Positions 1 through 18,740 of a DNA stretch of 21,204 bases are shown one piece after another (position 1 is the stretch's first letter; every line of letters starts with the position of its first letter). The stretch is from IMG/VR virus record IMGVR_UViG_2703718841_000002. One strand, written 5' to 3'. The notes beneath the pieces are model-generated. The model was not told the origin of the DNA. It saw only the letters and a program-made list of their open reading frames with translations, and did no database searches. Position numbers and translations under genes: made by a program. The DNA comes from a virus (lineage: Duplodnaviria; Heunggongvirae; Uroviricota; Caudoviricetes).

Positions 1-93
1 GCGGAGTTATCCCGCGTGGAGATAGTCGAGCTGCTCAGTCAGGAGTCGGAAAAATTTCACAATATCGGATTGTCTCGCGGGGAGGTGCTTTGA
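1..93 (+). CDS. 3' end of an upstream early-region gene (partial; stop TGA overlaps the next ATG)
   Basis: Open frame from window edge, reads ...[30 protein letters not shown]; stop overlaps start of next ORF, typical of coupled phage early genes. Confidence 0.3.
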
Positions 94-395
94 TGTCCTG
101 TTCTCGTTCAGTTGTATTACTGAATAACGCCTTAAAAATCACCGTTATGAAAAATGGCGATTTATCTCTTATTCAACTTGGTCTTGATAAAGAAAAACGC
201 GAAATAACTGAGTCTGTTATCGCGATTTATCAGAACGAATTAAATCTCCTGTCTGATGTGGTCAATTTACTTGTTAAACGCGCTGTATTTCACAAGCAAA
301 TCTCCTCCGTGGATGAACTGACGAAATTAACGACAGAAATTGCCAGCTATTGCGCTGATGAATTTAAAAAACTTAACGACAAAAGGAGCTGGTAA
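93..395 (+). CDS. Hypothetical small early-region protein (P2 orf80/81-like position)
   Basis: ORF track 90..395; the track start is TTG, first ATG at 93 (protein begins MM); sits in the cluster upstream of A. Confidence 0.55.
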   Translation: MSCSRSVVLLNNALKITVMKNGDLSLIQLGLDKEKREITESVIAIYQNELNLLSDVVNLLVKRAVFHKQISSVDELTKLTTEIASYCADEFKKLNDKRSW

Positions 396-619
396 TGCCG
401 GACAACGTAGATTTTATTCAGGAACAACAGGCTGAATTACTGGAGCGTCAGATTAACGCGGCAAGGGTAAAACATTGCGGTGCTTCTGCGCTGGTTTGCG
501 AAGAGTGTGACGCGCCAATACCTGCTGCCCGTCGTGCGGCTTATCCGTCAGCCACGCGTTGTGTTTCCTGCCAGTCAGTCTTTGAAGCAAAAAACAAACA
601 TTACCGGAGAACGGCATGA
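395..619 (+). CDS. TraR/DksA-family C4 zinc-finger protein (P2 Orf82-like)
   Basis: 74 aa with CEEC...x17...CVSC four-cysteine motif; start overlaps preceding stop (TAATG). Confidence 0.75.
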   Translation: MPDNVDFIQEQQAELLERQINAARVKHCGASALVCEECDAPIPAARRAAYPSATRCVSCQSVFEAKNKHYRRTA

Positions 620-891
620 GTATTCGTATTGAAATTGGCGAACGTTATGTCGTTACCAGTGACAGCTTTCAGTTTATTCTCCACGAGAAAAAGAGAGCGG
701 AAAGCGGTAAAAACGCCGGTCAGGAATGGCTGGCGGTGGTTGGTTATTATCCGAAATTAAGCCAGCTCGTTTCCGGCCTGATGCATCACGATATTCTGAC
801 CGGAAGCGCAAAGTCTTTTGCTGATTTAAACGCGCAGGTTGAGCAACTCAGCAGGCGTTGTTCAGAGGCTTTTGGCTCATATGGCCGTTAA
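616..891 (+). CDS. Hypothetical protein (P2 orf83-like position)
   Basis: 91-aa ORF immediately upstream of and overlapping the A start. Confidence 0.55.
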   Translation: MSIRIEIGERYVVTSDSFQFILHEKKRAESGKNAGQEWLAVVGYYPKLSQLVSGLMHHDILTGSAKSFADLNAQVEQLSRRCSEAFGSYGR

Positions 892-3154
892 AGCCTCCGG
901 GCGTTTTGTCCCTCCGTCAGCATTTGCTGCAGGCACCGGTAAGGCGTTTACCGGTGCTTATGCATGGAACGCGCCACGCGAGGCCGTCGGGCGCGAAAGA
1001 TCCCTTACACGTGACGAGATGCGTCAGGTGCAAGGTGTTTTATCCACGATTAACCGCCTGCCTTACTTTTTGCGCTCGCTGTTTACTTCACGCTATGACT
1101 ACATCCGGCGCAATAAAAGCCCGGTGCACGGGTTTTATTTCCTCACATCCACTTTTCAGCGTCGTTTATGGCCGCGCATTGAGCGTGTGAATCAGCGCCA
1201 TGAAATGAACACCGACGCGTCGTTACTGTTTCTGGCAGAGCGTGACCACTATGCTCGCCTGCCGGGAATGAATGACAAGGAGCTGAAAAAGTTTGCTGCC
1301 CGTATCTCATCGCAGCTTTTCATGATGTATGAGGAACTCAGCGATGCCTGGGTGGATGCGCATGGCGAAAAAGAATCGCTGTTTACGGATGAGGCGCAGG
1401 CTCACCTCTATGGTCATGTTGCTGGCGCTGCACGTGCTTTCAATATTTCCCCGCTCTACTGGAAAAAATACCGTAAAGGGCAGATGACCACGAGGCAGGC
1501 ATATTCTGCCATTGCCCGTCTGTTTAACGATGAGTGGTGGACTCATCAGCTTAAAGGCCAGCGTATGCGCTGGCATGAAGCGTTACTGATAGCTGTCGGG
1601 GAGGTCAATAAAGACCGTTCTCCTTATGCCAGTAAACACGCCATTCGTGATGTGCGTGCGCGCCGCCAGGCAAATCTGGAATTTCTTAAATCGTGTGACC
1701 TTGAAAACAGGGAAACCGGCGAGCGCATCGACCTTATCAGTAAGGTGATGGGCAGTATTTCTAATCCTGAAATTCGCCGGATGGAGCTGATGAACACCAT
1801 TGCCGGTATTGAGCGTTACGCCGCCGCAGAGGGTGATGTGGGGATGTTTATCACGCTGACCGCGCCGTCAAAGTATCACCCGACTCGTCAGGTCAGAAAA
1901 GGCGAAAGTAAAACCGTTCAGCTTAATCACGGCTGGAACGATGAGGCATTTAATCCAAAGGATGCGCAGCGTTATCTCTGCCGCATCTGGAGCCTGATGC
2001 GCACGGCATTCAAGGATAATGATTTACAGGTCTACGGTTTGCGTGTCGTCGAGCCACACCACGACGGAACGCCGCACTGGCATATGATGCTTTTTTGTAA
2101 TCCACGCCAGCGTAACCAGATTATCGAAATCATGCGTCGCTATGCGCTCAAAGAGGATGGTGACGAAAGAGGAGCCGCGCGAAACCGTTTTCAGGCAAAG
2201 CACCTTAACCGGGGCGGTGCTGCGGGATATATCGCGAAATACATTTCAAAAAATATCGACGGCTATGCACTGGATGGTCAGCTCGATAACGATACCGGTA
2301 AGCCGCTTAAAGATACTGCCGCGGCTGTTACCGCATGGGCGTCAACGTGGCGCATCCCGCAATTTAAAACGGTTGGACTGCCGACAATGGGGGCTTACCG
2401 TGAACTACGCAAATTGCCTCGCGGCGTCAGTATTGCTGATGAGTTTGACGAACGCGTCGAGGCTGCTCGCGCTGCCGCAGACAGTGGTGATTTTGCGTTG
2501 TATATCAGCGCGCAGGGTGGGGCAAATGTCCCGCGCGATTGTCAGACTGTCAGGGTTGCCCGTAGCCCGTCGGATGACGTTAACGAGTACGAGGAAGAAG
2601 TCGGGAGAGTGGTCGGCATTTACGCGCCGCATCTCGGCGCGCGTCATATTCATATCACCAGAACGACGGACTGGCGCATTGTGCCGAAAGTTCCGGTCGT
2701 GGAGCCTTTGACTTTAAAAAGCGGCATCGCCGCGCCTCGGAGTCCTGTCAATAACTGTGGAAAGCTCACCGGTGGTGATACTTCGTTACCGGCTCCCACG
2801 CCTTCTGAGCACGCCGCAGCAGTGCTTAATCTGGTTGATGACGGTGTTATCGAATGGAATGACCCGGAGGTCGTGAGGGCGCTCAGAAGCGCATTAAAAC
2901 ACGGCCTGAGAAGACCAAACCGTCAGCAAAGAAACGGAAGCCCGTTAAAACTGCATGAAATAGCGCCATCGGCCAGACTTACCCGGTCGGAACGAATGCA
3001 AATTACCCGTATCCGCGTTGACCTTGCTCAGAACGGTATCAGGCCGCAGCGATGGGAGCTTGAGGCGCTGGCGCGTGGGGCAACCGTAAATTATGACGGG
3101 AAAAAATTCACGTATCCGATTGCTGAAGAGTGGTCGGGATTTTCCTCAAACTAA
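881..3154 (+). CDS. A: Replication initiation protein gpA (rolling-circle nicking endonuclease)
   Basis: ORF 839..3154; preferred start is the ATG at 881 (MAVKASGRFVPPSAF...); contains HUH-like PHWHMMLF and dual-tyrosine YIAKYISK motifs. Confidence 0.9.
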   Translation: MAVKASGRFVPPSAFAAGTGKAFTGAYAWNAPREAVGRERSLTRDEMRQVQGVLSTINRLPYFLRSLFTSRYDYIRRNKSPVHGFYFLTSTFQRRLWPRIERVNQRHEMNTDASLLFLAERDHYARLPGMNDKELKKFAARISSQLFMMYEELSDAWVDAHGEKESLFTDEAQAHLYGHVAGAARAFNISPLYWKKYRKGQMTTRQAYSAIARLFNDEWWTHQLKGQRMRWHEALLIAVGEVNKDRSPYASKHAIRDVRARRQANLEFLKSCDLENRETGERIDLISKVMGSISNPEIRRMELMNTIAGIERYAAAEGDVGMFITLTAPSKYHPTRQVRKGESKTVQLNHGWNDEAFNPKDAQRYLCRIWSLMRTAFKDNDLQVYGLRVVEPHHDGTPHWHMMLFCNPRQRNQIIEIMRRYALKEDGDERGAARNRFQAKHLNRGGAAGYIAKYISKNIDGYALDGQLDNDTGKPLKDTAAAVTAWASTWRIPQFKTVGLPTMGAYRELRKLPRGVSIADEFDERVEAARAAADSGDFALYISAQGGANVPRDCQTVRVARSPSDDVNEYEEEVGRVVGIYAPHLGARHIHITRTTDWRIVPKVPVVEPLTLKSGIAAPRSPVNNCGKLTGGDTSLPAPTPSEHAAAVLNLVDDGVIEWNDPEVVRALRSALKHGLRRPNRQQRNGSPLKLHEIAPSARLTRSERMQITRIRVDLAQNGIRPQRWELEALARGATVNYDGKKFTYPIAEEWSGFSSN

Positions 3155-3326
3155 TAATGATGTTTGACAAAGAGATGTTGATGAGACTAAAAATTTTATT
3201 TGTCTGTATAACCATTCGGTTAGAGTACAATAGTTCCGAGTGATAGGAATACAAATAATGACTAAGTTTTCAACATGCGATTATTATGGGTTGAATTAAA
3301 GGTAAATAACTATGTTAAATAATATA

Positions 3327-3358
3327 GGGCAAGAGGGTGTTCTTGCCCTTTGTTTATT
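3327..3358. terminator. Candidate intrinsic terminator hairpin between A and the SIR2-like gene
   Basis: GGGCAAGA / TCTTGCCC 8-bp inverted repeat with 6-nt loop, followed by TTTGTTTATTT on the plus strand; overlaps the minus-strand stop codon. Confidence 0.45.
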
Positions 3359-5952
3359 TAAGCGGCGATTTCAATGTTGCTTTTATATTTTAAGAGGGCG
3401 TTTTTGGGAACTGCTGGCCAGGCTGAGTATCTATAATAGTTCATATAATCTTTCTCTATCAGTGTTTTTAGCTGTTTGTTAGCTTGAACTTCATCGCCAA
3501 GTAAAAAGAATGCACACATGGCCGTAGCCCCTTTTGAATTGTTATGTGCTAAAACTGAATTTATCTCATTCTTTTTAATGTCTTGCCCTTCTTTTTTCTT
3601 GGCAACTTCTCTATTGATTATTAAAACATCTTTTTCCCTGTAATCTTTAATTTTTTCAAGGTTTTCATTAGCGATTTTAATTGTTTCTTTATAGTTTCCT
3701 GCAAGAAGATTGGTATAAGATTTTCCTAAGATATAATCACTAAACCCGTAACCTTTTTCATAAGCTTCATCAAGAAGAACTATCGCTTTATCATAATCGC
3801 CGTTTAAAGATGCAATATCAGATTTTAATTTTAAAATGGTGATTTCTGATTTGTTTCTTGGCAGGCTATCAATAAACTCCTCTGCCAATTTGATGTTGTT
3901 TTTATCAATTAGTAATATGTCTACAATACTGTTTGTATGATTATTTTTCCACGGGCAGTTCATGGCTTCTTTGACTAATTCAATACCAGCTTTGATGTCC
4001 CTGTTGCAGCCTATCTCATATCGAGCTTTAAATATAATGAAAGGAGCAATTCTTGCAATGTCGCTCTCTTCTTCATATTTATCAATAAAGCCTTTCATCA
4101 GGTTGGGAGTGTTTTCATCGAAGTCTGTTTCAAATAAAGATAGATGCAGTTGTGTTAAATATTTTAATATGTTTCTTTTTTTATTTTTTGATGATGTTTT
4201 GTAAGCGTTGGATAATGTATCTATGCATAATAATGTATCTTCTTTCTTTTGCAATGCGCAGGTGAAATCAGTATATAACGACAAATATGTATCGTGAGTA
4301 GGGTTGACCTCTTTTATTTTGTCAAGCAGTTCTTGTATTAATTTATTACAATCTTTCTTATCATGGCTTGATTGATGTTTTGTCTTTATTGCGTCATATT
4401 TTATTCTCCATGCAATATTATCCAGATCACTGCTTTGGAGTAAGCTTTTATCAATTAAATCATGTATTTCATCAAAGGTTATTAATTCTTCATCATTATT
4501 TTCTAGATGTAGAATAGCAATTCTGCTTAAATGATTCTTAAGATTTATGCTATATGGGAATTTTTCAAGCAATCCCTTAAGGTAATGTATTTTTGCCTTT
4601 AGATCTGTGAATATGTTTGCCCTTGAAAGGGCGTAATTTATATTAAATTCATCAAGAGCTATAAGATTATCACTAATTTCTAATGCTGACTTTGTGTCTT
4701 TTTGTTCTTCTTTTATTTCAATTAGCCTACGCAGATATTTAGACTTTATATTGTCACTATCAGCGTTATTGATTAATTCATTCAGTTTTGACTCTGCGTT
4801 TAAATAATTTTTATTTCTAATGAGGTTGTCAATGTATAACAAATTCTTAAAATCTTCTTCGGGGATCTTTTGATCGTCTAAATCACTTTGGGATAGCTCG
4901 TTTATTAATGACGATATGTCATGTGTTAGAGTGTGTTTTTTTAATTTTGAGAGGTCAGATTTGATAATGCCATTTTTAGATAAGTTGTACTCATCTGTTA
5001 TAAAGTTTTGGATCATCATCTCTCTTTTTGTGGATTTTTGATTCCCTCCAAAAGAGAGTGCGCAGCCTAATTCTAGGGCTAGTTCTGCCATCAATTCATC
5101 AAAACCTTCTATTTCTACCCAATAAACTTTATCTTGACCTAGAAGCCTAATAAGTTCTGGTGGGATGGAGTCATTTTTTCTAACGCACCAGTATACTCCA
5201 TTTCTTAGGTAATCGTCCTGTTTTAATAAATGTTTTAAAACATCCATGATAGAGCTGTCATTGCCAGCATAACCAACAAAAATAATCCCGTATTCTTTAG
5301 TGAATTCAGTTAGTTTTTCACGAGTGTTACCTTCTAATGACTCGGTTTCTTTTAAAGAGCTTTTTATGCTATCAAATAAATAATCACCATGTAATTTTAT
5401 TATTTTTGGCCTTGAAGAAGTAATTGAGACGCCTTTAATTGATGAATCATGTGCACATAATAATGGTCTGTCAGAAGAAAATTGATAAAATGCTTCATTT
5501 ATTAAATCGTCAAAATTTGTTGTGAAGACAGTATCAAAAAACTTTGATTCAAATAGTTCAACGAGATAAGCATATCCAATTGAAGGTAATTTTTTGTCTA
5601 CTTGAAGCTCAACAAATCTTCTGCGTTGAGATGGAAGATCAAATTTCTTTTCAAAAAGAGATGAGTATTCATTGTTTGGGTCGTACCAGACTGGATGGTT
5701 TTTGGATAGCCATTTTTTAGCTTCTTCGGCATCGACATATTCTTGATTAGATAGTCTTGTGTATATCTCTTCTCTCCATTTCGCTACTAACTCTTGACCA
5801 GTTTTTATTCCAGATGTAACGGATGCGCCAGCACCAAGAAAAAGTGAATAGTTAGGTGATGTACCTGATTTGATTTTTATATAATCAGCTAAATCTTTAA
5901 CGGTTCTTTTTTTGGCAACCAGTTGTTCCTTGGTAGTATCACGATCAGACAT
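3358..5952 (-). CDS. SIR2-like NADase domain protein with C-terminal helical-repeat (TPR-like) domain; candidate anti-phage defence protein
   Basis: 864-aa ORF; N-terminal LFLGAGASVTSG, TTNFDDLINEAF (Asn146), IIKLHGDYLF (His188, codon at 5389-5391 checked); GGAGGG RBS 4 nt upstream of ATG; very AT-rich against GC-rich flanks; no Walker A motif. Confidence 0.7.
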   Translation of the reverse strand: MSDRDTTKEQLVAKKRTVKDLADYIKIKSGTSPNYSLFLGAGASVTSGIKTGQELVAKWREEIYTRLSNQEYVDAEEAKKWLSKNHPVWYDPNNEYSSLFEKKFDLPSQRRRFVELQVDKKLPSIGYAYLVELFESKFFDTVFTTNFDDLINEAFYQFSSDRPLLCAHDSSIKGVSITSSRPKIIKLHGDYLFDSIKSSLKETESLEGNTREKLTEFTKEYGIIFVGYAGNDSSIMDVLKHLLKQDDYLRNGVYWCVRKNDSIPPELIRLLGQDKVYWVEIEGFDELMAELALELGCALSFGGNQKSTKREMMIQNFITDEYNLSKNGIIKSDLSKLKKHTLTHDISSLINELSQSDLDDQKIPEEDFKNLLYIDNLIRNKNYLNAESKLNELINNADSDNIKSKYLRRLIEIKEEQKDTKSALEISDNLIALDEFNINYALSRANIFTDLKAKIHYLKGLLEKFPYSINLKNHLSRIAILHLENNDEELITFDEIHDLIDKSLLQSSDLDNIAWRIKYDAIKTKHQSSHDKKDCNKLIQELLDKIKEVNPTHDTYLSLYTDFTCALQKKEDTLLCIDTLSNAYKTSSKNKKRNILKYLTQLHLSLFETDFDENTPNLMKGFIDKYEEESDIARIAPFIIFKARYEIGCNRDIKAGIELVKEAMNCPWKNNHTNSIVDILLIDKNNIKLAEEFIDSLPRNKSEITILKLKSDIASLNGDYDKAIVLLDEAYEKGYGFSDYILGKSYTNLLAGNYKETIKIANENLEKIKDYREKDVLIINREVAKKKEGQDIKKNEINSVLAHNNSKGATAMCAFFLLGDEVQANKQLKTLIEKDYMNYYRYSAWPAVPKNALLKYKSNIEIAA

Positions 5953-6264
5953 TTTCCCTCCATAAATTATGTGTGAGAAGTGAGAATAATCCTAGGTGCG
6001 GTTATTTTTACATGAAATTCAATGGGTTTTCGTTTTTCTTACATGCGTTTTGTGACTGAGATCAAGCTATGAGGGAGGAATGTTCTTTTATTGTTCGCTA
6101 GAGGCTAATTGGCTAATAAGCTTTTACTAATCGTTTATGATGTACCATAGCGTTGAATGATTTTGCATGCATTTGTCAGATGTTTACTGATGTTGTTATG
6201 TCAGAGCTGGTGCGCTTTAGGTTATTTCATGCAACTGCATTAAAACCACCACATGAAGCGGGCG

Positions 6265-6283
6265 GGCGAGGCGGGGAAAGCAC
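6265..6283. other. cos: cos cohesive-end site (P2-type 19-nt sequence GGCGAGGCGGGGAAAGCAC)
   Basis: Exact match to the P2/186 cohesive-end sequence as I recall it, in the expected place between the cargo slot and Q; coordinates may be off by 1-2 nt. Confidence 0.6.
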
Positions 6284-6425
6284 TGCGCGCTGGCGGTGGT
6301 GCTGATTTTATTTTTTCAGCGTCTGAGCGCGTCGTGATGGCGTTTAGATTGTGCGCCGGGGTGTTGGTGTGTCTGCGGGATGTTTTGTGCGGTGGTGAGC
6401 GTGTGAGGGCGTGATGACGGGGTGT

Positions 6426-6447
6426 AAAAAAGCCGCCCGCAGGCGGC
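6426..6447 (-). terminator. Candidate intrinsic terminator downstream of Q
   Basis: GCCGCC / GGCGGC stem with 4-nt loop; on the minus strand it is followed by a run of six T (plus-strand AAAAAA at 6426-6431); a few nt past the Q stop. Confidence 0.5.
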
Positions 6448-6452
6448 GATGT

Positions 6453-7487
6453 TCAGCCGTTGTCAGTGTCCAGTGAGTAGTTTTTAAAGCGGATGACCTC
6501 CTGACCGAGCCAGCCGTTTATCTCGCGGATCCTGTCCTGTAACGGGATAAGCTCATTGCGGACAAAGACCTTTGCCACTTTCTCAATATCACCCAGCGAC
6601 CCGACGTTCTCCGGCTTGCCGCCCATCAACTGAAAGGGGATGCGGTGCGCGTCCAGCAGGTCTGCGGCACTGGCTTTTTTGATATTAAAAAAATCGTCCT
6701 TCGTCGCCACTTCACTGAGCGGGATAATTTTAATGCCGTCGGCTTTCCCTTGTGGGGCATAGAGAAACAGATTTTTAAAGTTGTTGCGGCCTTTCGACTT
6801 CACCATGTTTTCGCGAAGCATTTCGATATCGTTGCGATCCTGCACGGCATCGGTGACGTACATGATGTATCCGGCATGTGCGCCGTTTTCGTAATACTTG
6901 CGGCGGAACAGCGTGGCCGATTCATTCAGCCAGGCAGAGTTAAGGGCGCTGAGATATTCCGGCAGGCCGTACAGCTCCTGATTAATATCCGGCTCCAGCA
7001 GGTGAAACACGGAGCCGGGTGCGAAGGCTGTCGGCTCGTTGAAGGACGGCACCCACCAGTAAACATCCTCTTCCACGCCACGGCGGGTATATTTTGCCGG
7101 TGAGGTTTCCAGTCTGATGACCTTACCGGTGGTGCTGTAACGCTTTTCCAGAAACGCATTACCGAACACCAGAAAATCCAGCACAAAGCGGCTGAAATCC
7201 TGCTGGGAAAGCCACGGATGCGGGATAAATGTCGAGGCCAGAATATTGCGTTTGACGTAAATCGGGGAGCTGTGATGCACGGCAGCACGCAGGCTTTTTG
7301 CCAGACCGGTAAAGCTGACCGGTGGCTCATACCATCTGCCGTTACTGATGCACTCAACGTAATCCAGAATGTCACGGCGGTCGAGTACCGGCACCGGCTC
7401 GCCAAAGGTGAATGCTTCCATTTTCGGGGCGCTGGCGGTCATTGTTTTTGCCGCAGGTCGCGGTGTTTTCCCTTTTTTCTTGCTCAT
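6453..7487 (-). CDS. Q: Portal protein gpQ
   Basis: 344-aa ORF MSKKKGKTPRPAAKTM...; length and position match P2 Q; start overlaps the stop of P. Confidence 0.9.
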   Translation of the reverse strand: MSKKKGKTPRPAAKTMTASAPKMEAFTFGEPVPVLDRRDILDYVECISNGRWYEPPVSFTGLAKSLRAAVHHSSPIYVKRNILASTFIPHPWLSQQDFSRFVLDFLVFGNAFLEKRYSTTGKVIRLETSPAKYTRRGVEEDVYWWVPSFNEPTAFAPGSVFHLLEPDINQELYGLPEYLSALNSAWLNESATLFRRKYYENGAHAGYIMYVTDAVQDRNDIEMLRENMVKSKGRNNFKNLFLYAPQGKADGIKIIPLSEVATKDDFFNIKKASAADLLDAHRIPFQLMGGKPENVGSLGDIEKVAKVFVRNELIPLQDRIREINGWLGQEVIRFKNYSLDTDNG

Positions 7488-8098
7488 CAGTAAAACTCCA
7501 GAATGGTGGATGTCAGCGGGGTGCTGATACCGGCGGTGAGTGGCTCATTTAACAGGGCGTGCATGGTCGCCCAGGCGAGGTCGGCGTGGCTGGCTTCCTC
7601 GCTGCGGCTGGCCTCATAGGTGGCACTGCGTCCGCTGCTGGTCATGGTCTTGCGGATAGCCATAAACGAGCTGGTGATGTCGGTGGCGCTGACGTCATAT
7701 TCCAGACAGCCACGGCGGATAACGTCTTTTGCCTTGAGCACCATTGCGGTTTTCATTTCCGGCGTGTAGCGGATATCGCGCGCGGCGGGATAGAACGAGC
7801 GCACGAGCTGGAACACGCCGACACCGAGGCCGGTGGCATCAATCCCGATGTATTCAACGTTATATTTTTCGGTGAGTTTGCGGATGGATTCCGCCTGGGT
7901 GGCAAAGTCCATGCCTTTCCACTGGTGACGCTCAAGTATTCTGAATTTGCCACCGGCCACCACCGGCGGTGCCAGCACCACGCATCCGGCGCTGTCGCCA
8001 CGGTGTGACGGGTCGTAACCAATCCATACCGGGCGGGAGCCGAACGGATTGGCGGCAAACGGCGCATAGTCTTCCCATTCTTCCAGCGTGTCGACCAT
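7487..8098 (-). pseudogene. P: Terminase large subunit gpP, truncated: only the C-terminal nuclease-domain 203 codons remain
   Basis: ORF begins MVDTLEEWEDYAPF...VWIGYDPSHRGD; P2 P is ~590 aa; sequence upstream of 8098 is the capsid gene on the other strand. Confidence 0.7.
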
Positions 8099-8104
8099 GC
8101 AGCG

Positions 8105-9139
8105 TTGCAGCTCCTCGAACTGAACGGCATCGACGCCGGTGATGTGTCGAAAAAATTCACCGTTGAACCGTCGGTCACCCAGACCCTGATGAACACCATG
8201 CAGGAGTCCTCTGATTTTCTGACCCGCATCAACATTGTGCCGGTCAGCGAAATGAAAGGGGAAAAAATTGGTATTGGTGTCACCGGCTCCATCGCCAGCA
8301 CCACCGACACCGCCGGTGGCACCGAGCGTCAGCCGAAGGACTTCTCGAAGCTGGCGTCAAACAAGTACGAATGCGACCAGATTAACTTCGATTTTTATAT
8401 CCGCTACAAAACGCTTGACCTGTGGGCGCGTTATCAGGATTTCCAGCTCCGTATCCGTAACGCCATTATCAAACGCCAGTCCCTTGATTTCATCATGGCC
8501 GGTTTTAACGGCGTGAAGCGTGCCGAAACCTCTGACCGCAGCAGCAATCCGATGCTGCAGGATGTGGCGGTCGGCTGGCTGCAGAAATACCGCAATGAAG
8601 CCCCGGCGCGCGTGATGAGCAAGGTTACTGACGAGGAAGGTCACACCACCTCTGAGGTCATCCGCGTGGGTAAGGGCGGTGATTATGCCAGCCTCGATGC
8701 ACTGGTGATGGATGCGACCAACAACCTGATTGAGCCGTGGTATCAGGAAGACCCTGACCTTGTGGTGATTGTGGGGCGTCAGCTACTGGCGGACAAGTAT
8801 TTCCCCATCGTCAACAGGGAGCAGGACAACAGCGAAATGCTGGCCGCTGACGTCATCATCAGCCAGAAACGCATCGGTAACCTGCCGGCGGTACGCGTCC
8901 CGTACTTCCCGGCGGATGCGATGCTCATCACGAAGCTGGAAAACCTGTCCATCTACTACATGGATGACAGCCATCGCCGCGTGATTGAGGAAAACCCGAA
9001 ACTCGACCGCGTGGAGAACTACGAGTCAATGAACATTGATTACGTGGTGGAAGACTACGCCGCCGGTTGTCTGGTGGAAAAAATTAAGGTCGGTGATTTC
9101 TCCACACCGGCTAAAGCGACCGCAGAGTCGGGAGCGTAA
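8105..9139 (+). CDS. N: Major capsid protein gpN, 5'-truncated (native start and ~15 N-terminal codons missing; track start is a TTG)
   Basis: 344-aa ORF ...LELNGIDAGDVSKKFTVEPSVTQTLMNTMQESSDFLTR... recognised as P2 N; begins within a few nt of the truncated P. Confidence 0.8.
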   Translation: MQLLELNGIDAGDVSKKFTVEPSVTQTLMNTMQESSDFLTRINIVPVSEMKGEKIGIGVTGSIASTTDTAGGTERQPKDFSKLASNKYECDQINFDFYIRYKTLDLWARYQDFQLRIRNAIIKRQSLDFIMAGFNGVKRAETSDRSSNPMLQDVAVGWLQKYRNEAPARVMSKVTDEEGHTTSEVIRVGKGGDYASLDALVMDATNNLIEPWYQEDPDLVVIVGRQLLADKYFPIVNREQDNSEMLAADVIISQKRIGNLPAVRVPYFPADAMLITKLENLSIYYMDDSHRRVIEENPKLDRVENYESMNIDYVVEDYAAGCLVEKIKVGDFSTPAKATAESGA

Positions 9140-9142
9140 CCG

Positions 9143-9886
9143 ATGACGAGTCCCGCACAGCGCCACATGATGCGGGTCTCGGCAGCGATGACCGCGCAGC
9201 GGGAAGCCGCCCCGCTGCGACATGCAACTGTCTATGAGCAGATGCTGGTTAAGCTCGCCGCAGACCAGCGCACACTGAAAGCGATTTATTCAAAAGAGCT
9301 GAAGGCCGCGAAAAAACGCGAACTGCTGCCGTTCTGGTTGCCGTGGGTGAACGGCGTGCTGGACCAGGGCAAAGGTGCACAGGATGACATTCTGATGACG
9401 GTCATGCTGTGGCGTCTGGATACCGGCGATATTGCCGGTGCGCTGGAGATTGCCCGTTATGCCCTGAAGTACGGTCTGACCATGCCGGGTAAACACCGCC
9501 GCACCCCGCCGTACATGTTCACCGAGGAGGTGGCGCTCGCGGCCATGCGCGCTCACGCTGCCGGTGAGTCTGTGGATACCCGCCTGCTGACGGAGACCCT
9601 TGAACTGACCGCCACGGCTGACATGCCTGATGAAGTGCGCGCAAAGCTGCACAAAATCACCGGTCTGTTTCTGCGTGGCGCTGGTGATGCCGCCGGTGCG
9701 CTGTCGCACCTGCAACGTGCGACACAGCTCGACTGTCAGGCAGGCGTCAAAAAAGAGATTGAACGACTGGAGCGGGAGCTGAAACCGAAGCCGGAGCCGC
9801 AGCCAAAAGCGGCCACCCGCGCCCCGCATAAGACCCGGAGCGTGACACCGGCAAAACGTGGACGCCCGAAAAAGAAAGCCAGTTAA
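9143..9886 (+). CDS. M: Terminase small (endonuclease) subunit gpM
   Basis: 247-aa ORF directly after N, basic C-terminal tail; P2 M-like. Confidence 0.85.
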   Translation: MTSPAQRHMMRVSAAMTAQREAAPLRHATVYEQMLVKLAADQRTLKAIYSKELKAAKKRELLPFWLPWVNGVLDQGKGAQDDILMTVMLWRLDTGDIAGALEIARYALKYGLTMPGKHRRTPPYMFTEEVALAAMRAHAAGESVDTRLLTETLELTATADMPDEVRAKLHKITGLFLRGAGDAAGALSHLQRATQLDCQAGVKKEIERLERELKPKPEPQPKAATRAPHKTRSVTPAKRGRPKKKAS

Positions 9887-9985
9887 CAACCGAATGCGCC
9901 CCGCGCCAGGGCGGCACGCCGGTCAGTGAGGGTGAATCACCTGACACTGCACCGGCGTCCACCGCCCGACTTTTCAGAGGTAGTC

Positions 9986-10495
9986 ATGATGACGCTGATT
10001 ATTCCGCGAAAGGAGGCTCCCGTGTCCGGTGAGGGTACGGTGGTCATCCCGCAACCGGCAGGCGACGAGCCGGTGATTAAAAACACGTTCTTTTTTCCCG
10101 ATATCGACCCGAAGCGCGTCCGGGAACGTATGCGCCTTGAGCAGACCGTCGCCCCCGCCCGTCTGCGTGAGGCTATCAAGTCAGGCATGGCGGAGACAAA
10201 TGCGGAGCTGTACGAGTATCGCGAACAGAAAATTGCCGCCGGTTTTACGCGTCTGGCGGACGTCCCGGCGGACGACATCGACGGTGAAAGCATCAAAGTT
10301 TTTTACTACGAGCGCGCCGTGTGTGCGATGGCGACCGCGTCGCTTTATGAGCGTTATCGCGGCGTGGATGCCAGTGCGAAAGGCGACAAGAAGGCTGACA
10401 GCATTGACAGCACCATTGATGAGCTGTGGCGGGATATGCGCTGGGCGGTGGCGCGCATCCAGGGCAAGCCGCGCTGCATCGTGAGTCAAATCTGA
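9986..10495 (+). CDS. L: Head completion/stabilisation protein gpL
   Basis: ORF 9926..10495; preferred start at internal MMTLIIPRKEAP (9986), giving 169 aa. Confidence 0.8.
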   Translation: MMTLIIPRKEAPVSGEGTVVIPQPAGDEPVIKNTFFFPDIDPKRVRERMRLEQTVAPARLREAIKSGMAETNAELYEYREQKIAAGFTRLADVPADDIDGESIKVFYYERAVCAMATASLYERYRGVDASAKGDKKADSIDSTIDELWRDMRWAVARIQGKPRCIVSQI

Positions 10496-10698
10496 TGAAG
10501 ACCTTTGCGCTACAGGGCGACACGCTCGACGCCATTTGTGTCCGGTATTACGGGCGCACTGAGGGCGTGGTTGAGACCGTGCTTGCCGCAAATCCGGGGC
10601 TGGCTGAACTGGGGGCGGTGCTGCCACATGGCACCGCCGTCGAACTGCCCGACGTTCAGACCGCGCCCGTGGCTGAAACTGTCAATCTGTGGGAGTAA
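10495..10698 (+). CDS. X: Tail protein gpX
   Basis: 67-aa MKTFALQGDTLDAICVRYYG...; start overlaps the L stop (TGATG). Confidence 0.75.
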   Translation: MKTFALQGDTLDAICVRYYGRTEGVVETVLAANPGLAELGAVLPHGTAVELPDVQTAPVAETVNLWE

Positions 10699-10701
10699 CG
10701 C

Positions 10702-10983
10702 ATGACAGCAGAAGAAAAAAGCGTCCTGTCGCTTTTCATGATTGGAGTGCTGATTGTTGTCGGCAAGGTGCTTGCCGGTGGTGAACCCATCACCCCGCGT
10801 CTGTTTATCGGGCGCATGTTGCTCGGTGGTTTTGTCTCGATGGTTGCCGGTGTTGTTCTGGTGCAGTTTCCTGACCTGTCACTGCCTGCGGTGTGCGGTA
10901 TCGGCTCCATGCTGGGTATCGCCGGTTATCAGGTGATTGAGATTGCCATTCAGCGCCGCTTTAAGGGCAGGGGGAAACCGTAA
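10702..10983 (+). CDS. Y: Holin gpY
   Basis: 93-aa protein with hydrophobic transmembrane segments and basic C-terminus, first gene of the lysis cassette. Confidence 0.8.
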   Translation: MTAEEKSVLSLFMIGVLIVVGKVLAGGEPITPRLFIGRMLLGGFVSMVAGVVLVQFPDLSLPAVCGIGSMLGIAGYQVIEIAIQRRFKGRGKP

Positions 10984-11480
10984 TGCCGGTAATTAACACG
11001 CATCAGAATATCGCGGCCTTTCTCGACATGCTGGCAGTGTCCGAAGGGACGGCGAATCATCCGCTGACGAAAAACCGGGGCTATGACGTGATAGTCACCG
11101 GACTGGACGGGAAGCCGGAAATTTTCACCGACTACAGTGACCACCCGTTCGCGCATGGCCGACCGGCGAAGGTGTTTAACTGTCGCGGTGAAAAATCCAC
11201 GGCCTCCGGTCGCTATCAGCAGCTTTACCTGTTCTGGCCGCACTACCGCAAACAGCTTGCCCTGCCGGATTTCAGTCCGTTGTCACAGGACAGACTCGCC
11301 ATTCAGTTGATCCGCGAACGCGGTGCGCTGGATGACATCCGGGCGGGACGCATTGAGCGCGCCATTTCACGCTGTCGCAATATCTGGGCGTCCCTGCCGG
11401 GTGCCGGTTACGGTCAGCGTGAGCATTCACTGGAAAAACTGGTCACCGTCTGGCGTACCGCTGGCGGCGTACCGGCTTAA
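10983..11480 (+). CDS. K: Endolysin gpK (lysozyme-like)
   Basis: 165-aa soluble protein after the holin; P2 K-like. Confidence 0.8.
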   Translation: MPVINTHQNIAAFLDMLAVSEGTANHPLTKNRGYDVIVTGLDGKPEIFTDYSDHPFAHGRPAKVFNCRGEKSTASGRYQQLYLFWPHYRKQLALPDFSPLSQDRLAIQLIRERGALDDIRAGRIERAISRCRNIWASLPGAGYGQREHSLEKLVTVWRTAGGVPA

Positions 11481-11494
11481 ACGGAGTAAACACC

Positions 11495-11920
11495 ATGAAG
11501 AAATTATCCCTTTCACTGATGCTGAACGTGTCGCTGGCGCTGATGCTGGCACTGTCCCTGATTTACCCGCAGAGCGTGGCCGTCAGTTTTGTCGCCACCT
11601 GGGCGATTCTGGCGACGGTTATCTGTGTGGTTGCCGGTGGTGTCGGCGTGTATGCCACTGAGTATGTGCTGGAACGCTACGGGCGTGAGCTGCCGCCTGA
11701 ATCGCTGGCCGTGAAGATTGTCACGTCGCTGTTTTTGCAGCCGGTGCCGTGGCGCAGACGGGCGGCGGCTCTGGTGGTGATGGTGGCGACGTTTATCTCG
11801 CTGGTCGCTGCCGGGTGGATTTTTACCGCGCTGATTTACCTCGTGGCGTCGGTGTTCTTCCGGCTGATACGTACGGCCTGTCGTCAGCGTTTTGAGGGGC
11901 GGGAACCATGTCAAAGCTGA
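11495..11920 (+). CDS. lysA: Lysis-timing membrane protein LysA
   Basis: 141 aa with about four hydrophobic helices, after the endolysin. Confidence 0.7.
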   Translation: MKKLSLSLMLNVSLALMLALSLIYPQSVAVSFVATWAILATVICVVAGGVGVYATEYVLERYGRELPPESLAVKIVTSLFLQPVPWRRRAAALVVMVATFISLVAAGWIFTALIYLVASVFFRLIRTACRQRFEGREPCQS

Positions 11921-12333
11921 TGATTGTGATGGTTGTGTTGTTATCGCTGGCGGTGGCGGGGCTGTTTCTGGCGAAGCATGAAAACGCCAGCCTGCGCGCC
12001 TCGCTGGACAGGGTGAACAGCGTCGCCAGTGAACAGCAGACGACCATCACCATGCTGAAAAATCAGCTTCATGTTGCCCTCACCAGGGCAGACAAAAACG
12101 AGCTGGCGCAGGTGGCACTGCGTCAGGCGCTGGAGAACGCCGCGAAGCGTGAAGCACTGCGCGAGAAAACCATCACGAGGTTACTTAATGAAAACGAGGA
12201 TTTTCGCCGCTGGTATGGCGCTGACCTGCCTGATGCTGTGCGCCGGTTGCACCAGCGTCCGGCCTGCACCGACGCCAGTGATTGTCCACAACGCCTGCCC
12301 GAAAGTGAGCCTTTGCCCGATGCCGGGCAGTGA
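11908..12333 (+). CDS. lysB: i-spanin LysB (Rz-like)
   Basis: 141 aa, N-terminal transmembrane helix then charged coiled-coil-like region. Confidence 0.7.
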   Translation: MSKLMIVMVVLLSLAVAGLFLAKHENASLRASLDRVNSVASEQQTTITMLKNQLHVALTRADKNELAQVALRQALENAAKREALREKTITRLLNENEDFRRWYGADLPDAVRRLHQRPACTDASDCPQRLPESEPLPDAGQ

Positions 12334-12478
12334 CCCGCAGAAGAACGGCGATTTAAGTGCTGATATCCGGCAGCTTGAGAACGCGCTGGCACGCTGTGCC
12401 AGCCAGGTAAAAATGATTAAACACTGTCAGGACGAAAACGATGCTCAAACCCGACAGCCTGCGCAGGGCGCTGACTGA
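12188..12478 (+). CDS. lysC: o-spanin lipoprotein LysC (Rz1-like), partly embedded in lysB in another frame
   Basis: Internal ATG of ORF 12071..12478 gives MKTRIFAAGMALTCLMLCAGC... with an LCAGC lipobox; 96 aa. Confidence 0.65.
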   Translation: MKTRIFAAGMALTCLMLCAGCTSVRPAPTPVIVHNACPKVSLCPMPGSDPQKNGDLSADIRQLENALARCASQVKMIKHCQDENDAQTRQPAQGAD

Positions 12479-12908
12479 TGCCGTCACGGTGCTGAAAACT
12501 AACCCCGATATGCTGCGGATATTCGTGGATAACGGGAGTATTGCCTCCACGCTAGCGGAGTCGTTGTCATTCGAAAAGCGTTACACGCTCAATGTCATTG
12601 TGACCGACTTTACCGGTGATTTTGACCTGCTCATCGTGCCGGTGCTGGCGTGGCTGCGGGAAAATCAGCCCGACATCATGACCACCGACGAAGGCCAGAA
12701 AAAGGGCTTCACGTTTTATGCAGACATCAACAATGACAGCAGCTTTGATATCAGCATCAGCCTGATGCTGACCGAGCGCACGCTGGTCAGTGAGGTGGAC
12801 GGCGCACTGCATGTGAAGAATATCCCGGAACCCACGCCGCCGGAGCCGGTCACCCGCCCGATGGAGCTTTATATCAATGGTGAACTGGTGAGCAAGTGGG
12901 ATGAATGA
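12441..12908 (+). CDS. R: Tail completion protein gpR
   Basis: 155-aa ORF MLKPDSLRRALTDAVTVLKTNPDML...; P2 R-like. Confidence 0.85.
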   Translation: MLKPDSLRRALTDAVTVLKTNPDMLRIFVDNGSIASTLAESLSFEKRYTLNVIVTDFTGDFDLLIVPVLAWLRENQPDIMTTDEGQKKGFTFYADINNDSSFDISISLMLTERTLVSEVDGALHVKNIPEPTPPEPVTRPMELYINGELVSKWDE

Positions 12909-13359
12909 GTTTAAGCGTTTTGAAGACCGGCTGACCGGACTGATTGAGTCGCTGTCACCGTCAGGGCGTCGGCGACTGGCGGTAGATATTGCGAAGAAGC
13001 TGCGCCAGCGCCAGCAGCAGCGAATTAAATTACAAAAAGCCCCGGATGGTACGCCGTATGTACCGAGAAAAAACCAACCAGTACGAAATAAGAAAGGCCG
13101 GATAAAGCGGGAAATGTTTGTGAAATTACGCACTAACCGGTTTATGAAAGCAACAGGTAGCGAGAGTGCGGCGGTGGTGGCGTTTGCCAGCGGAGTACAA
13201 CGAATTGCGCGAGTACATCAATTAGGGCTTAGGGATAAGCCGGGGCGTAATAGTGCTGTGGTGGAATATCCTGTTCGTGAGTTATTTGGTTTTGACAAGG
13301 AATCTATACAATTGATAGAAAGGGAGTTATTAGTGATTCTATCGAAAGATGTTATATGA
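12901..13359 (+). CDS. S: Tail completion protein gpS (3' end is AT-rich, possibly a chimeric C-terminus)
   Basis: 152-aa ORF MNEFKRFEDRLTGLIESLSPSGRRRL...; composition turns AT-rich from about 13200. Confidence 0.8.
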   Translation: MNEFKRFEDRLTGLIESLSPSGRRRLAVDIAKKLRQRQQQRIKLQKAPDGTPYVPRKNQPVRNKKGRIKREMFVKLRTNRFMKATGSESAAVVAFASGVQRIARVHQLGLRDKPGRNSAVVEYPVRELFGFDKESIQLIERELLVILSKDVI

Positions 13360-14111
13360 GACGGGTGTTTGTGGATAAAAAGTTTTCCATTTTGAGAAAA
13401 AGAGTAAAGCATTCTCAAAAGAAAGTTATGGATTGTATTATTGCTGACCATAATGCTGATATATGTGTGTTATGCGGGAGTTCTGACGATATTACTCGTG
13501 AGCACATTATTCCTCAGTGGGCCTTTGAGTCAAATGCTGAAAAATCTTTAATTAATAAAAAGAATAATCAGTCAACTCATTACATTAAAGCCACTGTACC
13601 AGCATGCAGAGTGTGCAATTCTGATTTGCTGGGAGTGTTTGAGTATAACCTGAAGAAATTTCTTACGGAAAAGAGAGGGGAGGAGTTAACAGATTATGAG
13701 TATGATTGCATCATATGGTGGTTGCAATACATGGGTTTTAAGTTGCAATTAATGGATTTGCGGAACCGCTTTCTCAGGTATAAAGGTGGTGATTATATCC
13801 CGTTTCTTGCAAACTTCCCGGTTGCAATGTTTTGGGGGAATGTCGATACGACGCCGGGGGATGTCTTCAGGATTATACGAAAATCGCGACGCAATCTGAT
13901 GTCGAAATGGAAGGATAAAAAACATAATTCTTTGATGGTTTTTGAAACATCAAACAAGAGTTTTCATTTCTTTCATAAGGTTGATGAATTTATTTTTATT
14001 GAAATTCCTCAGGTTAAGAAGGCGTTTTTCTTCTTTTTTAATAAAGAATTTGACAGCCATGATTTAGCTCATGAGGAGTGTATGAAGATTATAGAGAAGT
14101 GCTACAACTAA
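13356..14111 (+). CDS. HNH-motif endonuclease-like protein; candidate accessory/defence gene at the S-V moron site
   Basis: 251-aa AT-rich ORF with CVLCGSSDDITREHIIPQW and a second CRVCN pair; start overlaps the S stop. Confidence 0.6.
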   Translation: MRRVFVDKKFSILRKRVKHSQKKVMDCIIADHNADICVLCGSSDDITREHIIPQWAFESNAEKSLINKKNNQSTHYIKATVPACRVCNSDLLGVFEYNLKKFLTEKRGEELTDYEYDCIIWWLQYMGFKLQLMDLRNRFLRYKGGDYIPFLANFPVAMFWGNVDTTPGDVFRIIRKSRRNLMSKWKDKKHNSLMVFETSNKSFHFFHKVDEFIFIEIPQVKKAFFFFFNKEFDSHDLAHEECMKIIEKCYN

Positions 14112-14188
14112 TATTTGTTATGTTGTGTCACAGCTGACAGAACCCTCCATGATTGCTGCTGGTATCGTCCAGCGGCATCCTTCCCGTT
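14112..14188 (+). promoter_or_regulatory. Possible Ogr-dependent late promoter upstream of V (imperfect TGT-N11/13-ACA dyad)
   Basis: TGTTATGTTGTGTCACAGCTGACA in the intergenic region ahead of V; spacing does not match the TGT-N12-ACA consensus exactly. Confidence 0.25.
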
Positions 14189-14824
14189 ATGAACACTCTC
14201 GCAAATATTCAGGAACTCGCGCGCGCACTGCGCAATATGATTCGCACCGGCGTTATCGTCGAAACCGACCTTAACGCCGGTCGCTGCCGTGTGCAGACCG
14301 GCGGCATGTGCACCGACTGGCTTCAGTGGTTGACCCATCGTGCCGGGCGTTCGCGTACATGGTGGGCACCTTCCGTGGGGGAACAGGTGCTGATTCTGGC
14401 CGTGGGCGGTGAACTTGACACGGCGTTTGTTCTGCCGGGGATTTATTCCGGTGATAACCCCGCGCCGTCTGCGTCGGCGGATGCCCTGCATATCCGTTTC
14501 CCTGACGGGGCGGTGATTGAGTATGAACCCGAAACCAGTGCACTCATGGTAAGCGGAATTAAAACGGCCAGCGTGACGGCTTCTGATTCTGTTACTGCCA
14601 CGGTGCCGGTGGTCATGGTGAAAGCATCAACCCGCATCACCATGGACGCACCGGAGGTGGTCTGCACCAACAGGCTGATTACCGACACGCTGGAAGTGCA
14701 GAAGGGCGGGACGATGCGCGGCAACATTGAACACACCGGCGGTGAACTCTCATCAAACGGTAAGGTACTGCATACCCATAAACACCCCGGCGACAGCGGC
14801 GGCACAACCGGGAGTCCTCTATGA
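14189..14824 (+). CDS. V: Baseplate spike/assembly protein gpV
   Basis: ORF 14153..14824; preferred start MNTLANIQELARALRNM at 14189 (211 aa). Confidence 0.85.
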   Translation: MNTLANIQELARALRNMIRTGVIVETDLNAGRCRVQTGGMCTDWLQWLTHRAGRSRTWWAPSVGEQVLILAVGGELDTAFVLPGIYSGDNPAPSASADALHIRFPDGAVIEYEPETSALMVSGIKTASVTASDSVTATVPVVMVKASTRITMDAPEVVCTNRLITDTLEVQKGGTMRGNIEHTGGELSSNGKVLHTHKHPGDSGGTTGSPL

Positions 14825-15168
14825 CAGCGCGTTATCTCGGAATGAATCGCAGTGATGGCCTGACTGTCACTGACCTTGAGCATATCAGCCAGAGTATCGG
14901 CGATATCCTGCGCACACCGGTCGGCTCACGGGTGATGCGTCGTGATTACGGCTCGTTGCTGGCGTCAATGATTGACCAGCCGCAGACCCCGGCGCTTGAG
15001 TTGCAGATTAAGGTCGCCTGTTACATGGCCGTGCTGAAATGGGAACCCCGCGTCACCCTGTCATCCGTCACCACGGCGCGCAGTTTTGACGGGCGAATGA
15101 CGGTCACGTTAACCGGCCAGCACAACGACACCGGCCAGCCACTTTCGTTAACCATCCCTGTGAGTTGA
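14821..15168 (+). CDS. W: Baseplate wedge protein gpW
   Basis: 115-aa ORF overlapping the V stop; P2 W-like. Confidence 0.85.
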   Translation: MTARYLGMNRSDGLTVTDLEHISQSIGDILRTPVGSRVMRRDYGSLLASMIDQPQTPALELQIKVACYMAVLKWEPRVTLSSVTTARSFDGRMTVTLTGQHNDTGQPLSLTIPVS

Positions 15169-15172
15169 AACC

Positions 15173-16081
15173 ATGCCGATTATCGACCTGAACCAGCTAC
15201 CCGCACCGGATGTGGTCGAGGAGCTGGACTTTGAAACCATTCTTGCCGAACGCAAGGCGACACTGATTTCCCTTTACCCGGAAGACCAGCAGGAGGCGGT
15301 CGCCCGTACCCTGACGCTGGAATCTGAGCCTCTCGTCAAACTGCTGGAGGAAAATGCTTATCGTGAGCTTATCTGGCGTCAGCGTGTGAATGAGGCTGCA
15401 CGGGCGGTGATGCTGGCCTGTGCCGCCGGTAATGACCTTGATGTGATTGGTGCCAATTACAACACCACACGCCTGATTATCACCCCGGCAGATGATTCGA
15501 CCCTCCCGCCGACACCGGCCGTGATGGAATCTGACACCGATTATCGTCTGCGTATTCAGCAGGCGTTTGAAGGTTTAAGCGTCGCCGGGTCGGTGGGGGC
15601 CTATCAGTATCATGGTCGAAGTGCCGACGGGCGTGTCGCAGATATCTCTGTCACCAGTCCTTCTCCGGCCTGCGTCACCATCTCTGTGCTGTCACGTGAA
15701 AATAACGGTGTGGCATCCGAAGACCTGCTGGCGGTGGTGCGCAACGCCCTTAATGGTGAGGACGTCAGACCGGTGGCCGACCGTGTGACCGTGCAGTCTG
15801 CCGTCATCGTTGAATACCAGATAAATGCCACGCTTTACCTTTACCCTGGCCCCGAAAGCGAACCCATTCGCGCTGCCGCCGTGAAAAAACTGGAAGCGTA
15901 TATCACGGCACAGCACCGGCTGGGGCGCGACATCCGACTGTCTGCCATTTATGCCGCTTTGCATGTGGAAGGCGTGCAGCGTGTCGAACTGGCTGCACCG
16001 CTGGCCGACATCGTGCTCAACAATACGCAGGCGTCTTTCTGTACCGAATACAGCGTCGTGACAGGAGGCTCGGATGAGTGA
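15173..16081 (+). CDS. J: Baseplate assembly protein gpJ
   Basis: 302-aa ORF in conserved V-W-J-I order. Confidence 0.85.
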   Translation: MPIIDLNQLPAPDVVEELDFETILAERKATLISLYPEDQQEAVARTLTLESEPLVKLLEENAYRELIWRQRVNEAARAVMLACAAGNDLDVIGANYNTTRLIITPADDSTLPPTPAVMESDTDYRLRIQQAFEGLSVAGSVGAYQYHGRSADGRVADISVTSPSPACVTISVLSRENNGVASEDLLAVVRNALNGEDVRPVADRVTVQSAVIVEYQINATLYLYPGPESEPIRAAAVKKLEAYITAQHRLGRDIRLSAIYAALHVEGVQRVELAAPLADIVLNNTQASFCTEYSVVTGGSDE

Positions 16082-17989: not shown

Positions 17990-18597
17990 TGGATAACGCA
18001 GTATTAAATAGCGAGTTTATTGCCACGAAGGCGGGGAATATTACCGTCTATAACTACGATGGTGAAACTCGGGAATATATTTCTGCATCAACTGAATATC
18101 TTGCAGTGGGTGTCGGTATTCCAGCATATTCCTGTTTAGACGCTCCTGGTACATATAAGGCTGGTTATACAATTTGCCGTTCTGTAGATTTAAATTCATG
18201 GGAATATGTGCCAGACCATCGCGGTGAAATCGTCTATAACACCGAGACGGGAGATGCCAAAGAAATCACAGCACCGGGTGATTACCCCGAAAATACAACC
18301 ACTATCGCCCCATTAACGCCATACGATAAATGGGATGGTGAGAAATGGGTGACCGATACTGAGGCACAGCATAGCGCCGCAGTAGACGCGGCAGAAGCAC
18401 AGCGTCAGTCACTGATTGATACTGCAATGGCTTCCATTAGTCTGATTCAGCTGAAATTACAGGCCGGACGGAATCTGACGCAGTCAGAAACCAGCCGACT
18501 TAACACGGTGTTGGATTACATTGACGCGGTGACGGCAACAGATACCAGCACCGCGCCGGATGTTATCTGGCCTGAACTGCCGGAGACTGCGCAATAA
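17989..18597 (+). CDS. G: Tail fibre assembly chaperone gpG
   Basis: 202-aa ORF directly after H, ends ...VIWPELPETAQ. Confidence 0.75.
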   Translation: MDNAVLNSEFIATKAGNITVYNYDGETREYISASTEYLAVGVGIPAYSCLDAPGTYKAGYTICRSVDLNSWEYVPDHRGEIVYNTETGDAKEITAPGDYPENTTTIAPLTPYDKWDGEKWVTDTEAQHSAAVDAAEAQRQSLIDTAMASISLIQLKLQAGRNLTQSETSRLNTVLDYIDAVTATDTSTAPDVIWPELPETAQ

Positions 18598-18733: not shown

Positions 18734-18740
18734 ATGAACC

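Follow-up and report, generated by a model that had tools for sequence, protein, structure and literature searches.

A probable microhomology-mediated deletion brings together terminase and capsid gene remnants in a decaying P2-like prophage of Escherichia coli

The DNA stretch analyzed here (IMG/VR record IMGVR_UViG_2703718841_000002; 21,204 nucleotides (nt), hereinafter the window) is a P2-like (Peduovirus) prophage of Escherichia coli that shows 96-98.5% DNA identity in BLAST comparisons with Yersinia phage L-413C and with the intact prophage of E. coli TK3887. The head-gene region of this decaying prophage very probably underwent a single microhomology-mediated illegitimate deletion of 2,280 bp. 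Under the proposed scenario, joining between two CGAAC pentamers, likely by replication slippage or by RecA-independent short-homology joining, would have set the 3' 210 codons of the terminase large subunit gene P back-to-back with a major capsid gene N that lacks its first 17 codons. The same event would have eliminated the helix-turn-helix (HTH) and ATPase domains encoded by P, the divergent Ogr-dependent late promoters PP and PO, and gene O, leaving a promoterless pair of pseudogenes.

The head-gene deletion and its junction

The P2-like affiliation of the window is apparent both from its high DNA identity to this group and from the collinear gene order cos-Q-P / O-N-M-L-X-Y-K...R-S-V-W-J-I-H-G...U-D-ogr, which is shared with intact P2, L-413C, Wphi and the TK3887 prophage. 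The similarity to L-413C and TK3887 extends across orf80-A, cos, Q, the 3' part of P, N-S, V-I, U, D and ogr. Matches were obtained for 120 phage records, nearly all of them P2-like. When positions 6400-9900 were compared with phage genomes using megablast, P2-like phages aligned at ~98.5% identity over the N-M half only, with the Q-P half recovered as a separate match. Two references were employed for sizing the head-gene deletion, phage L-413C and the intact prophage located between pflA and pflB in E. coli TK3887, the closest relative among complete genomes. In L-413C, Q-P are oriented leftward and O-N-M-L rightward, the same order that a first-pass annotation of the window, made from the letters alone, had given for P2.

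In pairwise BLAST, window positions 6265-8120 correspond to L-413C 1-1856 (cos, Q and the 3' part of P) and positions 8116-13058 correspond to L-413C 4132-9074 (N without its 5' end, M, L, X, Y, K, lysA, lysB, R and part of S). The pentamer CGAAC is present at both breakpoints in the intact genomes (L-413C 1852-1856 and 4132-4136) and a single copy is left in the window; alignments to L-413C and TK3887 reveal no extra, inserted or insertion sequence (IS)-derived bases between the two segments. An overlap of at least 5 nt at a random junction has a probability of ~0.005 by an analytic estimate. According to base-by-base alignments, the missing DNA amounts to exactly 2,280 bp relative to both references, in good agreement with the ~2.2 kb that the first-pass annotation had suspected to be lost. 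The open reading frame (ORF) map likewise reproduces the minus-strand P ORF of 203 amino acids (aa) with its ATG at 8096-8098 and the plus-strand capsid ORF that begins with a TTG at 8105, 7 nt further on. The annotation had placed the deletion junction between these two start codons; the junction is real, and its true site is ~15 nt further to the right (Table 1).

The lost interval (L-413C 1857-4136) encompasses P codons 1-380, the whole 173-bp P/O intergenic region (L-413C 2996-3168) that holds the PP and PO promoters, the entire scaffold/protease gene O (L-413C 3169-4023), the O/N spacer and N codons 1-17. All losses proposed originally, namely the ATPase domain of P, the P/O promoter region, O and the first codons of N, thus fall inside this interval. 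No counterpart of gpO or of gpP residues 1-380 was found anywhere in the window by tblastn, and the deleted DNA has no match elsewhere in the window either. Compared with intact members of Peduovirus, the essential head genes (Q, P, O, N, M and L) are therefore not all complete in the window: O is absent, P is without residues 1-380 and N is without residues 1-17.

Table 1. Coordinates of the features discussed in the text (positions in the window)
Feature	Coordinates	Strand	Evidence and remarks
cos region (L-413C right/left end junction), retained	6223-6283		6223-6283 = L-413C 30668-30728; 6265 onward = L-413C 1 onward
Portal gene Q, intact, 344 aa; promoter PP lost	6453-7487	-	ORF; window 6265-8120 is 97.4% identical to L-413C 1-1856; Q of L-413C = 189-1223
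Terminase large subunit gene P remnant (P'), codons 381-590	7490-8120	-	Terminase_6C is the only Pfam match; tblastn
5'-truncated major capsid gene N (N')	8105-9139	+	344 aa; PF05125, TIGR01551; native ATG, ribosome-binding site and PO gone
Deletion junction 1, one retained copy of CGAAC	8116-8120		Base-by-base alignment with L-413C and TK3887; 5-nt overlap of the BLAST segments
Remaining genes of the former PO operon: M, L, X, holin Y, endolysin K, lysA, lysB, R, S; ORFs intact throughout, cut off from PO	9143-13359	+	ORFs; homology to L-413C 4132-9074; PMC3931495
Deletion junction 2, microhomology GGTAC; invertible tail-fibre segment joined to the 3' end (~106 codons) of tape measure gene T	19116-19120		Alignments, BLAST
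Gene D interrupted by 299 N (masked, or a gap in the scaffold)	20436-20734		TK3887 has 486 bp there; related IMG contig ends exactly at 20435

Remnants of the terminase and capsid genes

Pfam (Terminase_6C and Phage_cap_P2) and the alignments agree on the identity of the two remnants as homologs of P and N. In tblastn comparisons, residues 381-590 of L-413C gpP are encoded at window positions 8119-7490 with 100% aa identity. The sole usable ORF in the remnant (hereinafter P') is located at 7487-8098 on the minus strand and encodes 203 aa starting from the internal Met388, that is, the nuclease domain alone. Full-length gpP of L-413C consists of the Terminase_5 HTH domain (residues 12-69), the Terminase_6N ATPase domain (164-386) and the Terminase_6C domain (413-571) in Pfam searches. 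The 203-aa product matches Terminase_6C only (PF17289, RNaseH-like nuclease; E=4e-48, residues 26-184, a match over the full length of the profile), with the motif VWIGYDPSHRGD at residues 24-35, and lacks the Terminase_5 and Terminase_6N domains of the gpP type. The P frame remains open through the junction for ~86 codons, but no ATG, GTG or TTG occurs in it upstream of Met388. The Met388 codon itself is preceded by a sequence resembling a Shine-Dalgarno (SD) site, GAGGAG, at a spacing of 12 nt.

The truncated capsid gene (hereinafter N') starts with four foreign codons, TTG CAG CTC CTC (LQLL), which are antisense P sequence and are followed by gpN residues 18-357, ~98% identical to those of L-413C in tblastn; the native sequence begins at Glu18 (compare the N-terminus MRQETRFKFNAYLSRVAELNG with LQLLELNG). 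Accordingly, TTG 8105 is the start of the ORF, as annotated originally, although this codon and the next three derive from antisense P DNA and not from N. There is no SD-like sequence in front of the first start codon (TTG) of N', and the proposal that the capsid gene has lost its native N-terminus and ribosome-binding site holds: residues 1-17 are replaced and neither the native start codon nor the associated translation signal is present. The 344-aa product is readily recognized as Phage_cap_P2 (PF05125; E=3e-147, profile positions 8-327, 490.5 bits against a cut-off of 27) and also passes the NCBIfam model TIGR01551 (309 bits against a cut-off of 219.65). In P2, gpO cleaves off a propeptide of 31 residues from the N-terminus of gpN, and residues 1-14 make up helix alpha0, which lies at the procapsid trimer interfaces (PMC7552001). 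With the 17 residues missing from N', the N-arm has thus lost its alpha0 helix and the propeptide roughly half of its length; the mature region is intact.

Late promoters and predicted functional consequences

The late genes of P2 are transcribed from four Ogr-dependent promoters: PP for P and Q, PO for O, N, M, L, K, R and S, PV for V, W, J, I, H and G, and PF for FI, FII, E, E', T, U and D (PMC3931495). The product of O serves as maturation protease as well as internal scaffold, and neither P2 nor P4 forms viable particles without it; gpP and gpM are needed for packaging (PMC7552001). Because deletion 1 took the respective coding DNA, the scaffold/protease and the packaging ATPase are abolished, and alpha0 and half of the gpN propeptide are removed. 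Projected from the biology of P2, the element would be incapable of assembling procapsids or packaging DNA. Given that the lost interval holds the whole P/O intergenic region, the two groups of genes on the two sides of the junction, Q/P' and N'-M-L-X-Y-K-lysA-lysB-R-S, are both predicted to lack a late promoter. The removal of PO would strand the holin and endolysin genes as well, so that the element is probably unable to lyse the cell. The expectation of the first-pass annotation that the element could neither package DNA nor build capsids on its own, and that the downstream late genes are promoterless, follows in this sense from published work on P2 (PMC7552001, PMC3931495), and we accept it as an inference.

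Deletion 2, which is described below, removed the PF region upstream of FI. Of the four late blocks, only V-G therefore appears to keep an upstream region of its own, although the homology to L-413C and TK3887 in that region is limited to 37 nt. At window positions 14100-14190, homology to these references resumes 37 nt upstream of the start of V, and the position of PV is occupied by the end of a cargo insertion. Searches for the late-promoter consensus TGT-N12-ACA were uninformative and are not used as evidence: the window contains 0 exact matches compared with 4.6 expected by chance, and L-413C, with one mismatch allowed, contains 133 matches compared with 145 expected.

A second deletion in the tail region

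The positions 18300-19120 of the window represent the invertible tail-fibre segment, 99.9% identical to that of other E. coli prophages, and at 19116 a match to the final ~106 codons of T begins. Compared with TK3887, and hence with an intact Peduovirus genome, ~5.3 kb is missing between these segments, including the genes for the invertase, the FI sheath and FII tube proteins, E/E' and most of T, along with the region upstream of FI. Several of the tail genes that P2 requires (FI, FII, E, T, U, D and others) are accordingly missing or incomplete. The two segments overlap by 5 nt (GGTAC) and there is no foreign sequence between them. This junction is also present in the IMG/VR contig UViG_2703718840_000002 and is absent from 5,426 complete E. 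coli genomes. The head deletion is not the sole lethal lesion in this element, and deletion 2 is an independent one. An apparent 187-bp deletion in D was rejected since it corresponds to the run of 299 N.

Two junctions each with a 5-nt overlap suggest a microhomology mechanism. In both cases, a 5-nt direct repeat is found at both ends of the deleted segment, one copy is kept and there is no filler, as in microhomology-mediated, RecA-independent deletions of enterobacteria, from which we see no difference; slippage and end joining would both be candidate mechanisms. Deletion 2, of the same type and extending from the sheath to the tape measure gene, together with deletion 1 would make this element a recently inactivated, decaying prophage that has kept its early region, cos and cargo. 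Recent timing is suggested by the fact that all remaining late ORFs are intact. An IS-mediated origin of the deletions was considered and rejected because neither junction contains foreign sequence.

Distribution of the junction and assessment of alternative explanations

Junction 1 was not detected in the 5,426 complete E. coli genomes, in the GTDB species representatives or in the JGI metagenome contigs. An identical 344-aa N' product is predicted on a single NCBI contig, JYHP01000084.1, which belongs to the draft genome of E. coli MPEC4839, a sequence type 10 (ST10) isolate from bovine mastitis (PMC4966475). This contig (4,446 bp) corresponds to window positions 7893-12338 with 6 mismatches and contains the junction at 223 bp and 4.2 kb from its ends. 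A 39-mer spanning the junction was also found in the IMG/VR contig UViG_2703718840_000003 (10,175 bp), which corresponds to window positions 1-10173 with 10 mismatches, all of them at 9128-9704; here, 8.1 kb and 2 kb separate the junction from the two contig ends. Within the collections searched, the junction allele appears to be confined to one small lineage.

Where the window differs from the two other assemblies that share the junctions, the differences are confined to three patches, 9128-9704 (M), 11583-11597 (lysA) and 15030-15217 (V/W), and there are none over the other ~9 kb. Such patches of single-nucleotide polymorphisms (SNPs) suggest that these genomes contain a second P2-like prophage that took part in gene conversion or whose reads were mixed in, and the contig breaks in the other drafts at 7893, 10173, 12338 and 14866 likewise point to such a prophage.

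Several considerations weigh against the proposed scenario. The junction is known solely from assemblies, and the three assemblies that share it may come from one strain or clone, in which case they would not be independent. The window itself is scaffolded or masked, as indicated by the run of N at 20436-20734, and both this run and the start of the window coincide with contig ends of the IMG assembly. The loss of expression is deduced from the DNA, and if any read-through transcript exists, translation of P' from Met388 would be possible. A simple sigma-70 scan of the region 6100-9300, itself weak evidence, gave one promoter-like site, on the minus strand (8493-8465), compared with 2.0 expected by chance. 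No new plus-strand sigma-70-like promoter was found upstream of N' in the same region, in a weak scan in which the counts of sigma-70-like sites and terminators were at chance level.

An assembly artefact, whereby P' and N' would result from a misjoin or collapse at a locus that actually carries full-length P, O and N, finds some support in the draft-quality scaffold (the 299-N run and the window ends that coincide with contig ends of another draft), the clustered SNP patches suggestive of a second P2-like prophage that would complicate assembly, and the absence of the junction from the complete E. coli genomes. Misassembly nevertheless appears unlikely because the junction is well inside contigs of two other assemblies and the 5-nt overlap is far below any assembler overlap or k-mer, so that reads must span it; in addition, there are no Ns at the junction, and junction 2 of the same element is similarly reproduced in an independent contig. 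We consider an intact locus hidden by such an artefact to be highly improbable. Even less credible, to the point of being virtually dismissed, is a P2-like lineage that naturally lacks O and possesses a short terminase and a short capsid protein. In its favor, neither remnant ORF is interrupted and the genes on either side are intact, but both flanks are 97-98.5% identical in DNA to phages with the full P-O-N region, and the break lies 6 residues before the end of the ATPase domain on one side and inside the N-arm of gpN on the other (PMC7552001). Furthermore, N' has neither an ATG nor a ribosome-binding site of its own and begins in antisense P, and no phage record is so arranged: P2-like records match the two sides separately, and the two records that cover at least 80% of the query, both of Erwinia phage ENT90, contain the full P-O-N region.

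The position of the break in P might be non-random, reflecting either a hotspot just upstream of Met388 or selection for a stand-alone nuclease that, for example, interferes with superinfecting P2-like phages or P4. A product identical to the 203-aa P' is indeed called in 210 blocks of the public collection, beside at least 10 different upstream neighbors; in the ten places listed, these all differ and include tail fibre, gpI, truncated sheath, tube, D, chromosomal genes, and P interrupted by a nonsense codon at position 385 or 387. Several independent junctions lie no more than 14 nt apart (L-413C 1852-1856, which is that of the window, 1854, 1861 and 1865), and the SD-like GAGGAG precedes Met388. 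However, arbitrary internal methionines used as controls give truncated products that are just as abundant and diverse: 207 blocks and at least 10 contexts for P starting at Met450, and 261 blocks and 10 contexts for Q starting at Met209. The look-up of the exact 203-aa product by itself selects breaks near Met388, with breaks further upstream usually being called from GTG378 or ATG368; other junctions that yield this product are at L-413C 2028, 2119 and 2120. Moreover, PP is deleted here, leaving P' without a known promoter. Because the controls match, no special site or selection is evident and truncation of P2 head genes is simply common. We therefore rejected a hotspot or selected truncation at Met388, which seems very unlikely. 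Finally, the doubly deleted element could be a helper-dependent hitch-hiker that is packaged in trans by a second, intact P2-like prophage, or P', with its SD-like GAGGAG, could be expressed and interfere with the packaging of incoming P2-like phages or P4. The former idea stems from what the element has kept (cos, its early/replication region, the portal gene and defence genes among the cargo) and from the contig breaks and SNP patches that hint at a second prophage; we regard both as improbable. A single microhomology-mediated deletion in the head-gene region remains by far the preferred explanation.

Cargo genes and other features

The window contains two low-GC islands (30-37% GC) at known variable positions, A-cos and S-V. 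The variable region between A and cos harbors, at 3358-5952 on the minus strand, a gene for an 864-aa SIR2-domain protein (~31% GC) that has the same length as the SIR2 gene at this position in TK3887 and matches phrog_14359 over its full length; this is the same cargo gene in both prophages. Its N-terminal ~300 aa match Pfam SIR2_2 and PADLOC SIR2 models tied to short Argonaute systems, and no family match was obtained for the C-terminal ~560 aa. Between S and V, where L-413C and TK3887 have a short spacer, the window differs by the presence of another cargo ORF (13356-14111, plus strand; low GC, 251 aa). This ORF yielded a full-length match only to phrog_10503 (unknown function), has a CxxC...H-rich N-terminal part and is without a match in Pfam, PADLOC or NCBIfam; possibly, it is a cargo or defence gene. 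There was no NCBIfam match for P' or the cargo proteins, and an Rfam scan of the whole window found no RNA families.

Cryptic or defective P2-like remnants, which are widespread in E. coli, are a close parallel. In dozens of public contigs, truncated P or Q is fused to distant late genes or to the chromosome, and these remnants similarly retain the early region and the cargo hotspot and show direct junctions without inserted sequence; the difference is that the present pair of junctions is found only in the window and two other drafts (MPEC4839 and IMG 2703718840). In the truncated public contigs, the cargo located beside cos includes SIR2+DUF87, a retron reverse transcriptase, GmrSD, a DEAD helicase, an HATPase with a methylase, and Fic. 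These contigs represent a ready sample of decay intermediates of P2 prophages.

Concluding remarks

The deletion scar is a well-known kind of event and reflects ordinary prophage decay, not a new biological system; the lesion type is routine, given how often public assemblies contain truncated P and Q genes joined to a variety of deletion partners. The abundance of the truncated product (210 blocks) looked like a hotspot until matched controls showed ascertainment, which calls for caution in similar analyses. For annotation, P' and N' are best described as two pseudogenes left behind by one deletion, and a short terminase gene and a TTG-initiated capsid gene would be the wrong labels, and the prophage should be scored as defective, that is, neither as a phage nor as a P4 helper. 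The pattern of decay, with morphogenesis genes lost through small microhomology deletions, and the low-GC cargo (SIR2 and the phrog_10503 ORF) and the early region intact, fits the general picture of prophage domestication.

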